DNA of 5,058 nucleotides from a virus (Duplodnaviria > Heunggongvirae > Uroviricota > Caudoviricetes). Numbering within the stretch: the stretch's first letter is position 1; every line of letters begins with the position of its first letter. The translations under genes were made by a program, and so were the position numbers. The DNA lies in IMG/VR virus record IMGVR_UViG_2693429560_000008, one strand, 5' to 3'. The notes under the pieces are model-generated. The model saw nothing but the letters and a program-made list of their open reading frames with translations, did no database searches and was not told the DNA's origin. Below, piece after piece: positions 460-4,777 of the stretch.

Positions 460-795
460 ATGAAGTGGATTGTGATTGATACAGTTATCCAGCCATCATG
501 CGGAATATCTTTTTCAGTCATATGGAGTAAAATAAAATTAATAATCTGGTATCAATCGGATGCTTTCTTACCTCCTGAAAGTATATTTACACTGACTCAC
601 ACAGGCATCATGCTCAATAACAAAGTGCTACCTGTAACCATTTACAACGTAGTACCATTCAATAAAACATTCTGGAATTCAATCAAAAATAGCCAGGAAT
701 GCCCTACAAATACAGATAACGTATTGAATGAATGCTTTAATAACCGTTGCACTCTGCAAATATGTCCTTATGGACTAAAACAACAAAGTCCATAA
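460..795 (+). CDS. hypothetical protein, 111 aa, AT-rich cargo gene (copy 1)
   Basis: 336-nt ORF open in strongly AT-rich DNA where stops should be frequent. AGGA lies 6 nt before the ATG. An identical copy sits at 1834-2169. Five Cys residues; no family recognised. Confidence 0.5.
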
Positions 796-814: not shown

Positions 815-851
815 CAAAATCAATATAAACAGCCCCTCCGGAGAGGGGCTG
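815..851 (-). terminator. intrinsic terminator-like hairpin, minus-strand orientation
   Basis: Perfect 9-bp GC-rich stem (830-838 with 843-851) and 4-nt loop. On the minus strand it is followed by the U-rich run GUUUAUAUUGAUUUUG. Confidence 0.4.
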
Positions 852-1046
852 GAGAGTGGCGCTATGTGCCATTGCATGGTGCCGGGTGCCTCCCGGTGAA
901 TTCAGTACCAGCACCTGAATCCGCGATTATCCCATATACCTACTCGCTGATTGCCCCTCCGCACAGGGGGATTCACCATGCCAGTTTCTTTTAACAAACT
1001 CCCCGCAAAACAGACAACTGTCAACCGTCTGAATTGTGAGACATTT

Positions 1047-1072
1047 AAAAAAAAGGCCCGCAAAAGCGAGCC
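1047..1072 (-). terminator. intrinsic terminator just downstream of the copy-1 tRNA cluster
   Basis: On the minus strand: stem GGCUCGC, loop UUUU, stem GCGGGCC (one G-U pair), followed by eight U. Lies in the 36-bp copy-1-specific spacer; absent from copy 2. Confidence 0.5.
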
Positions 1073-1086
1073 AGGGAAAATAAGTG

Positions 1087-1743: not shown

Positions 1744-1766
1744 AGAAAAATAATTCTGCTCTATGG

Positions 1767-1793
1767 TTTACATTCAAAAATATCATTTATACT
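1767..1793 (+). promoter_or_regulatory. putative promoter for the 111-aa ORF, copy 2
   Basis: Identical to 393-419: TTTACA, 15 nt, TATACT. Confidence 0.3.
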
Positions 1794-1833
1794 TTTCAGA
1801 ACATCACCAGCAAGGCATAAACAAGGAAACTAA

Positions 1834-2169
1834 ATGAAGTGGATTGTGATTGATACAGTTATCCAGCCATCATGCGGAATATCTTTTTCAGTCATATGGA
1901 GTAAAATAAAATTAATAATCTGGTATCAATCGGATGCTTTCTTACCTCCTGAAAGTATATTTACACTGACTCACACAGGCATCATGCTCAATAACAAAGT
2001 GCTACCTGTAACCATTTACAACGTAGTACCATTCAATAAAACATTCTGGAATTCAATCAAAAATAGCCAGGAATGCCCTACAAATACAGATAACGTATTG
2101 AATGAATGCTTTAATAACCGTTGCACTCTGCAAATATGTCCTTATGGACTAAAACAACAAAGTCCATAA
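1834..2169 (+). CDS. hypothetical protein, 111 aa, AT-rich cargo gene (copy 2)
   Basis: Identical to the ORF at 460-795. Confidence 0.5.
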
Positions 2170-2188
2170 GGAGTTTACTCACATCTGA

Positions 2189-2225
2189 CAAAATCAATAT
2201 AAACAGCCCCTCCGGAGAGGGGCTG
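2189..2225 (-). terminator. intrinsic terminator-like hairpin, copy 2
   Basis: Identical to 815-851. Confidence 0.4.
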
Positions 2226-2449
2226 GAGAGTGGCGCTATGTGCCATTGCATGGTGCCGGGTGCCTCCCGGTGAATTCAGTACCAGCACCTGAATCCGCGA
2301 TTATCCCATATACCTACTCGCTGATTGCCCCTCCGCACAGGGGGATTCACCATGCCAGTTTCTTTTAACAAACTCCCCGCAAACCAGACAACAGTCAACC
2401 GCCTGAATTGTGAAGTATTTAAAAATTTCTCCCGCTAACTGATACCCGG

Positions 2450-2536
2450 CTAACAGTCTGGCGTTTTCTTTTTCAGCAACGGGAAAGCAACAACCACCAC
2501 ACCCGCCACCAGCACACCGTCAGCCAGCACTGACAT
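2450..2536 (-). CDS. possible 28-aa hydrophobic peptide
   Basis: Hand translation of the minus strand gives ATG...TAG: MSVLADGVLVAGVVVVAFPLLKKKTPDC, one hydrophobic stretch then KKK. No convincing RBS; could be a chance ORF in GC-rich low-complexity sequence. Confidence 0.15.
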   Translation of the reverse strand: MSVLADGVLVAGVVVVAFPLLKKKTPDC

Positions 2537-2616
2537 TATCCGGCTGCTGCAATGCCATTCACAAAAACAGTAAGCAATCACTTTTTACCGTAACAGGTGA
2601 TAATCCAGATATGTAT

Positions 2617-2970
2617 CTACCCCAGATGAGTAATCCGAAGTTCATCCATACCACAGGTCCTGGCTATTCTGTTGTACTCCTGAACAAGAGCAAATAATTC
2701 TGAATTAGCAACCATGAACTCATCGCAAACCCTCTGTATAGCATCACTATTCAGAATAATAACGTCTCTTCCCGAAAGACGATCAGGAGTACAGAACAAA
2801 ACTGTCAAACGGCTGAAGGCCTTTGCTCGTGCTGCATTGACTATATCAATACGCTGCCTAAGGATGAAACACCCCGACGCCTCATCAATATTCACTCTAC
2901 CCACACCATATGAATGATAAATATTTAATGCTGAAAAAACCATTAGACCGTATAACAAACACTCAATCAA
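2617..2970 (-). CDS. hypothetical protein, 108-117 aa, copy-2-specific cargo
   Basis: Minus-strand ORF from the track, which begins at a TTG. The first ATG is at 2941-2943 (MVFSALNIYHSYG...). Weak RBS. Lies directly downstream of the tRNA cluster in the slot where Stx phages carry stx, but has no resemblance to Stx A or B. Confidence 0.4.
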   Translation of the reverse strand: MIECLLYGLMVFSALNIYHSYGVGRVNIDEASGCFILRQRIDIVNAARAKAFSRLTVLFCTPDRLSGRDVIILNSDAIQRVCDEFMVANSELFALVQEYNRIARTCGMDELRITHLG

Positions 2971-3080
2971 TACTTAACAGAACTTTTATTTTTGACAAAC
3001 ATAAAATATTTTCAACAATATCCTGAGCCAGGTATATTTCAGTATAAGGCTCTGCCGGAAGGAATCTGGAAGAATGAATA

Positions 3081-3157
3081 TGGCGCGCTGTACTGGATTC
3101 GAACCAGTGACCGATTGCTTAGAAGGCAATTGCTCTGTCCGGCTGAGCTAACAACGC
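3081..3157 (-). tRNA. argO: tRNA-Arg, anticodon TCT (copy 2)
   Basis: Same as 1087-1163 except tRNA position 69 is G instead of A, turning the U4-A69 pair into a U4-G69 wobble. Confidence 0.85.
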
Positions 3158-3170
3158 ATGATGCAGATAA

Positions 3171-3247
3171 TGGACCGCCATCGGGGACTTGAACCCCGCG
3201 CAGCCAGCTTCGAAGGCTGGCGCTCTTTCCTGATGAGCTAATGGCGG
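3171..3247 (-). tRNA. argN: tRNA-Arg, anticodon TCG (copy 2)
   Basis: Identical to 1177-1253. Confidence 0.75.
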
Positions 3248-3254
3248 TATGTGA

Positions 3255-3330
3255 TGGTGGCCCTTGCTGGATTTGAACCAGCGACCTGGCGATTATGAGT
3301 CGCTCGCTCTCACCACTGAGCTAAAGGGCC
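3255..3330 (-). tRNA. ileZ: tRNA-Ile2, anticodon CAT (copy 2)
   Basis: Identical to 1261-1336. Confidence 0.85.
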
Positions 3331-3370
3331 GGGAGCCGCATAATAACGACGCGTAATTAATTCTTCAATA

Positions 3371-4429
3371 TCATCCGTTCTGGCTGACTAAATCCTGTAC
3401 TTCCCGAACCGTCTGCTCAAAACGTTCAGTCTCCAGCTCAACGCCAATTGCACGACGCCCGAGCGCCAGTGCCGCTTTCACTGTCGAACCCAACCCCATG
3501 AAAAAATCTGCAATCAGGTCACCCGGACGACTGCTAGCGCTGATTATCTGCTGCAGCATTTCTGCCGGTTTTTCGCACGGATGTTTCCCGGGATAGAACT
3601 GCACCGGTTTATGCGTCCACACATCGGTATACGGCACCTGCACCGTCACGCCAAAATACCGCCGCAGATGTTTATATTCACTCAGCAGCTCCGCATACTG
3701 CCGGTTCAGTGAGGTATACGTATCCACCAGCTGGTGGTGGAGCTTTTCCAGTTCACCACGCCGATGCTTCTCTTCTGCCACCCGGGCAAACAGCGCCTGT
3801 AATTTCAGATAATCGCTTTCATTCGGCAACTGCCACTGACCGGCACTGAACCAGTGCGACACCATGTTTTTCTTTCCTGTGGCATCTGCAATCTGTTTTG
3901 CCGTTATCCCCAGGGCAGCTCGCGCATCACGAAAGTAAGAAATCAGCGGGGCCATCACATGCTGTTTCAGTGCACTGCCCTTCGCCGCATACCCGGCATC
4001 TTTCGGACGATACGGCCCCTGATAATGTTCCGCGAACAGAATGCGCTCTGTGGCGGGGAAATACGCCCGCAGGCTTTCCTTGTTGCATCCGTTCCAGCGT
4101 CCGGACGGCTTCGCCCAGATAATATGGTTCAGCACACTGAAGCGTTCACGCATCATGATTTCGATATCAGATGCCAGGCGATGACCACAGAACAGGTAAA
4201 GACTTCCGGCAGGTTTCAGCACCCGCCAGAACTGCGCCAGACACTGGTCCAGCCACTTCAGGTAATCATCGTCGCCCTTCCACTGGTTATCCCAGCCCTC
4301 AGGCTTCACTTTAAAGTACGGCGGGTCCGTGACTATCAGGTCAACAGAATTTTCGGGTAACGACCGGATAAATTCCAGGCAGTCGGCGTTGATTAACTCA
4401 CAACTGGATATTTTTACAGTATTAAGCAT
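3371..4429 (-). CDS. N6-adenine DNA methyltransferase, beta-class, apparently orphan
   Basis: 352-aa ORF. Catalytic motif DPPY near the N-terminus (LIVTDPPY) and AdoMet-binding motif DFFMGLGST near the C-terminus; that motif order defines beta-class amino-methyltransferases. No restriction endonuclease partner in the window. Confidence 0.9.
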   Translation of the reverse strand: MLNTVKISSCELINADCLEFIRSLPENSVDLIVTDPPYFKVKPEGWDNQWKGDDDYLKWLDQCLAQFWRVLKPAGSLYLFCGHRLASDIEIMMRERFSVLNHIIWAKPSGRWNGCNKESLRAYFPATERILFAEHYQGPYRPKDAGYAAKGSALKQHVMAPLISYFRDARAALGITAKQIADATGKKNMVSHWFSAGQWQLPNESDYLKLQALFARVAEEKHRRGELEKLHHQLVDTYTSLNRQYAELLSEYKHLRRYFGVTVQVPYTDVWTHKPVQFYPGKHPCEKPAEMLQQIISASSRPGDLIADFFMGLGSTVKAALALGRRAIGVELETERFEQTVREVQDLVSQNG

Positions 4430-4565: not shown

Positions 4566-4593
4566 AAATAAAAAAGCCTTCACTGCGGAAGGC
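4566..4593 (-). terminator. intrinsic terminator after the 65-aa gene
   Basis: Minus strand: stem GCCUUC, loop CGCAGU, stem GAAGGC, followed by UUUUUUAUUU. The stem overlaps the stop codon of the 65-aa ORF. Confidence 0.5.
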
Positions 4594-4777
4594 GTCTGTA
4601 ACAACCGAACTGATAGTCTGCCAGACCCGCCATAACCAGCTGGGTCAGTATTAACTGGCAGCGTTCGCGTGAAAGGTAAGTATTCTGCGCTATCTCCCCG
4701 ACTGTCGCCGGTTCGGTAACGCTTAATTCATTAAACACCACTCTGGCGGTTTCTGTCATATCCTGCTGTTTTAGCAT
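4580..4777 (-). CDS. small putative DNA-binding protein, 65 aa
   Basis: AGGA sits 6 nt upstream of the ATG. The pattern TVGEIAQNTYLSRERCQLILTQLVMAGL is helix-turn-helix-like and weakly resembles FaeA/PapI-type winged-helix regulators, from memory. Confidence 0.5.
   Translation of the reverse strand: MLKQQDMTETARVVFNELSVTEPATVGEIAQNTYLSRERCQLILTQLVMAGLADYQFGCYRRLPQ

Follow-up and report, generated by a model that had tools for sequence, protein, structure and literature searches.

In lambdoid phages, the interval between the Q gene (late antiterminator) with its neighbouring tRNA genes and the lysis genes is the home of Shiga toxin and other conversion genes, whose occupants are massively expressed on induction, and cargo genes of unknown function are common in this phage region. 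The Shiga toxin genes (stx) are rich in codons read by the tRNAs encoded upstream of them, as is the gene described here. We analysed a 5,058-nucleotide (nt) stretch of viral DNA (IMG/VR record IMGVR_UViG_2693429560_000008; hereafter the window), in which phage late transcription follows the minus strand and for which the open reading frames (ORFs) and their translations were listed by a program. In this slot the window carries a minus-strand ORF (2617..2970) that is co-oriented with three upstream tRNA genes (3330..3081). A preliminary description had presented it as an unknown cargo gene of 108–117 amino acids (aa) in the stx-equivalent slot, unlike Stx A or B, which could be a novel accessory gene (moron; toxin, anti-defence or exclusion factor) or the remnant of a larger one. 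Comparison with homologous sequences indicates a conserved gene of 92 codons that forms, with a downstream DUF3927 gene, a cassette allelic to stx2AB. Of the earlier interpretation, the cargo gene of unknown function, the stx slot and the lack of relationship to Stx all stand, whereas library searches and a broken 5′ extension speak against the remnant idea and the greater length.

A closely similar arrangement is that of the Stx2a phage Stx2a_1447 (AP012536). Its backbone is 93.5% identical to that of the window across a 65-aa ORF (hyp65; 4777..4580, minus strand), a 352-aa DNA methyltransferase of the Stx-phage-type late-region backbone (3371..4429, minus strand; from the ORF list, the Prokaryotic Genome Annotation Pipeline (PGAP) and Stx-phage annotation) and a tRNA array. 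ARAGORN and Rfam identify the members of this array as ileZ-type (CAT), Arg(tcg) and Arg(tct), corresponding to the ileZ, argN and argO annotation in the Stx2a phage. In Stx2a_1447, argO and a hairpin also found in the window are followed by stx2A, stx2B and then a 70%-identical homologue of window positions 1819–2413, which hold an STnc100 small RNA (sRNA) and an IraM-like gene. With a matching backbone and stx2AB placed after argO, the cassette and stx2AB are alternative occupants of one slot, and the synteny bears out the position that had been proposed for the ORF downstream of the tRNAs. The two occupants are not otherwise alike: no RIP or SLT_beta match was found in Pfam at E ≤ 1 and no sequence match in the PDB, in agreement with the earlier statement on Stx A and B, and the target protein is a predicted all-helical hairpin with neither the sequence or domain similarity nor the signal peptide by which Stx is recognized.

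The window itself displays both states of the slot. It contains an imperfect tandem duplication (positions 370–1060 repeat 1744–2434, and 1074–1741 repeat 3068–3735) that comprises the IraM-like gene, STnc100, the tRNAs and the 3′ end of the methylase gene (370–1741 versus 1744–3735). One indel separates the repeat copies, with 642 bp (2426–3067) in copy 2 and a 22-bp hairpin linker in copy 1, so that the window shows a ‘filled’ and an ‘empty’ allele side by side; the span assigned to the cargo gene in the preliminary description, 2425–3080, coincides with this indel. In the empty-slot allele (1047..1086, minus strand), tRNA-Arg is followed by the hairpin GGCTCGCTTTTGCGGGCC and a T-run. In the filled allele, an AT-rich spacer unique to it (2971..3080, minus strand) leads from tRNA-Arg(tct) to the ORF, which is followed by a gene for a small hydrophobic DUF3927/TciB-like protein of 43 aa (2450..2581, minus strand; Pfam PF13064 E = 1.7e-27, phrog_1470 and PGAP), and STnc100 (2195..2384) forms the promoter-distal boundary. 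Alignment of the two alleles thus delimits the ORF and the DUF3927 gene as a 642-bp cassette between argO and STnc100. Counted as present at a coverage of at least 80% among 5426 complete Escherichia coli genomes, the cassette occurs in 1183 (~22%), including ST131, CFT073, O104:H4 and enterotoxigenic E. coli (ETEC) strains, and the empty-slot junction (141-bp probe, same coverage) occurs in at least 1020. Its presence in some and absence from other near-identical prophages mark it as dispensable cargo. Two properties expected of a moron, a cargo unit that a phage genome has acquired independently (sensu Juhala/Hendrix), are found: the cassette varies among close relatives, with both alleles in this one window, and its base composition deviates (GC content 0.44 in the ORF and 0.31 in the leader, against 0.53 in the methylase gene).

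An ORF in such DNA might be spurious, an accidental reading frame in AT-rich non-coding sequence, as its missing PGAP annotation would imply. The near-identical copies listed have nothing annotated under the ORF, the formerly assumed starts are weak and the GC content is 44%, but comparison of diverged lineages makes this explanation barely credible. We compared three lineages that differ by 28–33% in DNA over the core: the window type, a lineage from non-O157 Shiga toxin-producing E. coli (STEC; loci L003 and L005) and that of ETEC4079 (L006). A 276-nt frame is free of indels in all three, with several indels in the flanks. The Nei–Gojobori ratio of nonsynonymous to synonymous substitution rates (dN/dS) is 0.26–0.27 at dS 0.9–1.1 for all three lineage pairs, whereas the other two frames of the same alignment give 0.8–1.25 and contain 4–13 stops, and substitutions are in excess at third positions (for example, 24/23/43; p = 0.006–0.015). 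Purifying selection is therefore specific to the target frame. A scan of IMG/VR viral contigs was made with a narrow alignment of the family; the 80 best-matching copies, 98–99% identical to the query, are all intact and represent 11 alleles with no stop and no indel. The length of the frame is kept across lineages and genera, structure prediction with a 21-sequence alignment is confident, and PGAP annotates a homologous 92-aa allele; GenBank, and occasionally RefSeq, hold 108-aa or 92-aa entries named ‘hypothetical protein’. On this comparative evidence, the target is a genuine, intact and selectively maintained protein-coding gene. An antisense ORF (2714..2917, plus strand) was rejected as a candidate: it is not open in L003 and its frames give a dN/dS of about 1.

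The reading frame offers three starts, giving 117 aa from TTG 2970, 108 aa from ATG 2943 and 92 aa from GTG 2895. The description of an ORF of 108–117 aa in the slot, beginning about 110 bp from the tRNA and with weak translation signals, was accurate as far as the frame goes: TTG 2970 lies 110 nt from the last tRNA end (GTG 2895, 185 nt), and Shine–Dalgarno pairing at the two starts then assumed is −0.9 and −2.4 kcal/mol, respectively. It does not hold for the conserved coding sequence. Relatives do not keep the 25 codons ahead of GTG 2895 as coding, with an in-frame stop in L006, a 4-nt deletion in L005 and a 3-nt deletion in L004, and AlphaFold places them at a predicted local distance difference test (pLDDT) score below 50. 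Remote homologues are 91–100 aa long, although some are called at 106–110 aa with an N-terminal extension; their alignment starts at residue 26, and their N termini correspond to the residue encoded by GTG 2895 or one slightly upstream of it. Pairing at GTG 2895 is the best of the three (−4.5 kcal/mol), homologues bear AGGAG, AAGGA or AGGAGG at the matching site, and PGAP calls exactly the 92-aa form for the ETEC4079 homologue (WP_001017777.1). Together, the stop and frameshifts, the N termini of homologues, the PGAP call and the Shine–Dalgarno pairing make 2895..2617 the best gene model. As judged from these alignments, the conserved gene consists of 92 codons running from GTG 2895 with a TAG stop (2619..2617), and the in-frame upstream extension (2896..2970, minus strand), which is the source of the 117-aa and 108-aa readings, is most likely a non-coding 5′ leader. 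The 92-aa product (10.4 kDa, pI 5.7, N terminus MNIDEASG) has no transmembrane segment (maximum 19-residue Kyte–Doolittle mean 0.94) and no Sec signal peptide or hydrophobic N terminus. The 25-residue extension is hydrophobic and was considered as a signal peptide, yet a stop or frameshift breaks it in relatives.

Homologues were sought by a word-indexed search of 5.8e9 clusters and an exhaustive hidden Markov model (HMM) search of 1.84e9 representatives, and the protein-library searches returned 17, 21 and 40 relatives, the 40 being clusters from the library of 5.8e9 proteins. The protein matches phrog_2873 over its full length (E = 3.8e-70 when read as 117 aa; E = 5.6e-58 for the 92-aa core, which spans profile positions 17–108 of 108), as do all 21 aligned members; 20 of the 21 also match phrog_4827 (best E = 1.1e-19; the window protein itself, 2.2e-05). 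Both PHROGs are labelled ‘unknown function’, and every database name of a family member is ‘hypothetical protein’. Named members come from E. coli, Shigella, the Citrobacter freundii complex, Salmonella, Serratia marcescens, Morganella morganii and Xenorhabdus, and include Sb55 of Salmonella phage ST64B (hhalign 99.1%, E = 1e-18 over 93 columns). As sampled by these homologues, the family is small, phage-borne and confined to Enterobacterales. The gene is the accessory, variably present cargo gene that had been suggested, but the sequence is not new, being already in PHROGs and deposited repeatedly in GenBank/RefSeq. Searches of Pfam, NCBIfam and PDB sequences gave no credible match for the target protein and PADLOC gave none for the window protein; no toxin, defence, signal-peptide or transmembrane signature was found for it. 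Weak matches to UPF0335/GapR (E about 0.1), RHIM and AMPK AID were dismissed as chance, and the PADLOC model HEC-07, matched by four remote members at 11–16 bits over an internal helical stretch, is consistent with coiled-coil noise. Literature searches found nothing on the function of Sb55 or on DUF3927; the papers on Pas/STnc100 and HnrS concern neighbouring sRNAs only.

The same searches bear on the possibility that truncation of a larger gene or module left this gene behind as a remnant. One form of this idea is the tail of an operon of an AraC-type regulator and the ORF from which the regulator has been deleted: a 56%-identical homologue follows a 241-aa AraC-type gene after 21 nt in some 80 genomes, most of them non-O157 STEC. 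We consider a remnant very improbable. No homologue exceeds about 122 aa in either protein library; full-length members measure 91–110 aa, and the longest relatives (118–122 aa) are start-codon extensions or one C-terminally diverged partial sequence. The absence of longer homologues indicates that the target gene is not a remnant, and with it the truncation suspected earlier falls away. Comparison of 2971–3080 with the AraC gene and its leader gave no significant similarity over the 110 nt, which led us to reject a deleted upstream regulator, and an adjacent regulator is lacking in most lineages. Both the spurious-ORF and the gene-remnant explanations are effectively excluded. Where it occurs, the AraC-type (HTH_18) regulator (L003 164–889; L005 4322–5047) follows a 3′ fragment of the methylase gene, its carriers include serotypes O91:H21, O113:H21, O104:H21, O178:H19 and O22:H8, and it may be one of the uncharacterized Psr/PatE-like prophage regulators.

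AlphaFold2, given the 21-sequence alignment, predicted the structure with a mean pLDDT of 88 and a predicted template modelling score of 0.75. The model consists of two helices of about 32 residues each (3–34 and 50–81), packed as an antiparallel hairpin, and a short C-terminal tail; the loop that joins the helices bears a motif, TPDRxSG, conserved in the closer homologues of the E. coli/Citrobacter/Salmonella branch. The product is thus predicted to be a soluble, near-neutral two-helix hairpin of about 10 kDa. Foldseek returned no match at E ≤ 0.001 in the PDB or BFVD. The sensitive homology and structure searches that had been called for have led to an uncharacterized PHROG family with a generic hairpin fold, and their homologues do not make the gene a fragment of a known one. 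The predicted fold probably indicates a small, oligomeric helical protein-binding module, which would work in stoichiometric amounts by attaching to a partner protein, probably in the form of a dimeric four-helix bundle.

For the window allele, the block of tRNAs, spacer, ORF and DUF3927 gene is found wherever the contig is long enough, with STnc100 next in nearly all cases; the outer flanks vary, with Q alone or Q and the methylase gene upstream and a TciA-like, IraM or nanS-p gene downstream. In E. coli prophages and phage mEp460_ev081 this allele is flanked by Q, methylase, tRNA, holin and lysozyme genes. The order in Serratia is Q, tRNAs, family gene, small proteins and lysozyme; in Morganella, Q, methylase (with tRNA-Asn in some loci), family gene, holin and lysozyme; in Citrobacter, family gene, TerB-like gene, DUF3927, holins, endolysin, HNH and terminase; and in ST64B, lysis genes, a KilA-N gene, Sb55, HNH and terminase. 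In the roughly 80 mainly non-O157 STEC genomes, the AraC-type gene and the homologue are followed by nanS-p. In every phage context the family gene is co-oriented with the late operon and lies between Q or the tRNAs and the lysis or terminase genes. Such positions, directly upstream of holin and lysozyme genes or between lysis and terminase genes in the Serratia, Morganella, Citrobacter and ST64B loci, could also befit a factor that times lysis or controls late genes for optimal lytic growth of the phage itself, which would not then be cargo. We think this quite unlikely: the two alleles, empty and filled, are about equally frequent on one and the same backbone, stx replaces the gene in Stx phages, and the gene survives on plasmid-like contigs that have no lysis genes. 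On these E. coli contigs, a 91-aa relative (about 33% identical; loci L011–L013, 4001–4276) lies beside tRNA-Thr and a K88-like fimbrial operon with PapB and usher genes, in the company of Rep3_N and integrase genes.

The usual partner of the window allele is the DUF3927 gene, which is co-oriented with the target ORF and begins 35 nt downstream of it. A marker scan found the two linked in 79 of the 80 IMG/VR loci of this allele, and the lone exception ends at the ORF. The gene is 93% identical in DNA to tciB of phage JLK-2012 over window positions 2436–2549 only, that is, over its last 33 codons and 14 nt past the stop; the different 5′ part leaves the start uncertain, between GTG 2581 (called by PGAP) and a downstream codon. 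Proximity and linkage of this kind suggest that the two products might act as one unit, for instance a cytoplasmic regulator or antidote with a membrane-active peptide, the outcome of which could be, for example, superinfection exclusion, colicin- or tellurite-type resistance or abortive infection. Other loci lend this some colour: the Citrobacter family gene precedes a TerB-like gene and DUF3927, the tciA–tciB pair occupies the same slot in JLK-2012, and small membrane proteins or holins come after the family gene in Serratia and Morganella. Against it, no DUF3927 gene is called near the family gene in Serratia, Morganella, ST64B, ETEC4079 or the plasmid copies, and JLK-2012 has tciAB without a family gene. 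Each gene is found without the other, which indicates that neither requires its partner, and a joint unit seems to us unlikely, although less so than a role in lysis timing.

Transcription of the cassette can be judged from what surrounds it. In both the empty allele and the Stx2a phage, argO is succeeded by a strong intrinsic-terminator-like hairpin (GGCTCGCTTTTGCGGGCC with T8; window 1047–1072, minus strand). The filled allele has no terminator-like site from the tRNAs to the ORF, and with the hairpin lacking, tRNA transcripts would run into the cargo gene; the first convincing terminator downstream of the cassette belongs to STnc100. The spacer contains a single weak sigma-70-like match (TTGAAA-16-AAAAAT, 3015..2988, 9/12), and promoter-like matches in the region number 6 against 3.4 expected from shuffles. 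DNA homology of the spacer side with the diverged lineage L003 begins only at 2972, and the spacer (2971..3080) has no significant similarity to the regions upstream of homologues. An Rfam E-value scan found no known RNA between 2385 and 3080. The rare codons ATA, AGA, AGG and CGA, which are served by the three upstream tRNAs, account for 9 of the 92 codons of the target and for 5 of 353 in the methylase gene. By analogy with stx, we infer that the cassette would be transcribed with the late operon through Q-antiterminated read-through from upstream, and that translation of the target gene would be helped by the co-transcribed rare-codon tRNAs.

We regard it as fairly probable that, taken jointly, these properties describe a genuine cargo gene of the PHROG 2873 family that is dispensable and late-transcribed and encodes a protein-binding adaptor. 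Our best guess for the role is an accessory factor of a regulatory or inhibitory kind: a small adaptor that serves host takeover, anti-defence, exclusion or the control of lysis would fit better than an enzyme, secreted toxin or membrane protein. Several observations weigh against this account. The window allele is left without PGAP annotation in every complete genome inspected, the Shine–Dalgarno pairing at GTG 2895 is just moderate, and literature searches gave nothing on this gene. The fold, a helical hairpin of a generic kind, finds matches in hundreds of unrelated proteins, which makes a protein-binding adaptor the default inference rather than a specifically supported one. The argument for late-operon transcription is one of position only, and the weak promoter-like site at 3015..2988 would allow for expression in the lysogen. 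A family homologue also persists on the E. coli plasmid-like contigs, outside any recognizable phage late operon, which suits a benefit to the host no less well than a role in the lytic cycle.

A more far-reaching proposal is that the family constitutes a new class of small helical-hairpin effector, expressed by lambdoid phages of many enterobacterial genera from the Q-dependent late leader, in the slot that also serves Shiga toxin, that neutralizes a host function or sets lysis timing. Its target might be an anti-phage defence, to take one case, or a nuclease that attacks tRNAs, given that phage tRNA genes often lie just upstream of the family gene. We hold this proposal to be doubtful; if true, it would reveal an unrecognized, widespread determinant of the outcome of prophage induction in about a fifth of E. 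coli genomes. The gene that takes the place of stx in ~22% of complete E. coli genomes is real and maintained by selection; it has relatives in six or more further genera, and fold searches gave it no informative match. It is worthy of note for being prevalent and conserved across genera, for lying allelic to stx and for being often passed over in annotation. The analysis corrects the gene model to 92 aa with a GTG start and defines a presence/absence polymorphism that provides natural isogenic comparisons. The gene does not appear to be a toxin candidate, and nothing in the evidence would surprise a phage biologist.

The remaining features of the window belong to the duplication. Its two IraM-like anti-adaptor genes (copy 1, 460..795; copy 2, 1834..2169; both plus strand; NCBIfam PRK09919, 4.7e-48 for copy 2) are identical, encode 111 aa each, are AT-rich (GC content 0.35) and are convergent with the late operon. 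They are prophage cargo and could stabilize RpoS. The STnc100 sRNA is likewise present in two full-length copies on the minus strand (copy 1, 821..1010, 134 bits; copy 2, 132 bits; RF02076, gathering score 47), both of which end in the terminator CAGCCCCTCTCCGGAGGGGCTG (2225..2204 in copy 2). STnc100 is reported in a 2026 preprint (doi 10.64898/2026.05.13.724894) to be related to the PasD sRNAs of enteropathogenic E. coli prophages. In Stx2a_1447, an unannotated 0.9 kb downstream of stx2B and before a 645-aa nanS-p-like gene (L104 1175–2127) is ~70% identical to the IraM/STnc100 region, an identity that suggests that Stx2 phages may carry a diverged, unannotated IraM/STnc100 module. At the junction of the duplication (1741/1744) lies a short repeated motif, (C)ATC(A/T)GAAAAATAATTCT, which also occurs at 209–229 and 363–383. 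A 211-bp probe for the junction reached a coverage of at least 80% in none of the 5426 complete E. coli genomes, and the junction is also missing from all 103 loci retrieved; it would then be strain-specific, stem from a genome that the collection does not include or have arisen as an artefact of assembly.

Of the known systems, the stx2AB cassette is close in position. Both cassettes follow ileZ–argN–argO, precede an STnc100-like element and nanS-p, and are oriented with the late operon. They differ in that the target has no Stx sequence or domain similarity, signal peptide or transmembrane segment, and in that Stx phages retain the post-argO hairpin, which the filled allele lacks. The tciA–tciB pair (TerB-like and DUF3927) of JLK-2012 and its relatives shares the slot between Q and the tRNAs and the lysis genes, and its arrangement recurs in Citrobacter downstream of the family gene; the 92-aa gene of the window stands where JLK-2012 has tciA, but the proteins are unrelated, with no TerB match. 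In fold, the closest comparison is with generic antiparallel helical hairpins that pair into four-helix bundles, such as ROP, designed bundles, CHMP4B and prefoldin hairpins. In sequence, the gene belongs with PHROG 2873 and 4827, including Sb55, which agree with it in size, in full-length HMM match and in late-region location. The 108 positions of the PHROG 2873 model exceed the 92-aa core by 16 residues that come from the upstream extension, which is not conserved, and Sb55 is placed after the lysis genes of ST64B and not ahead of them.

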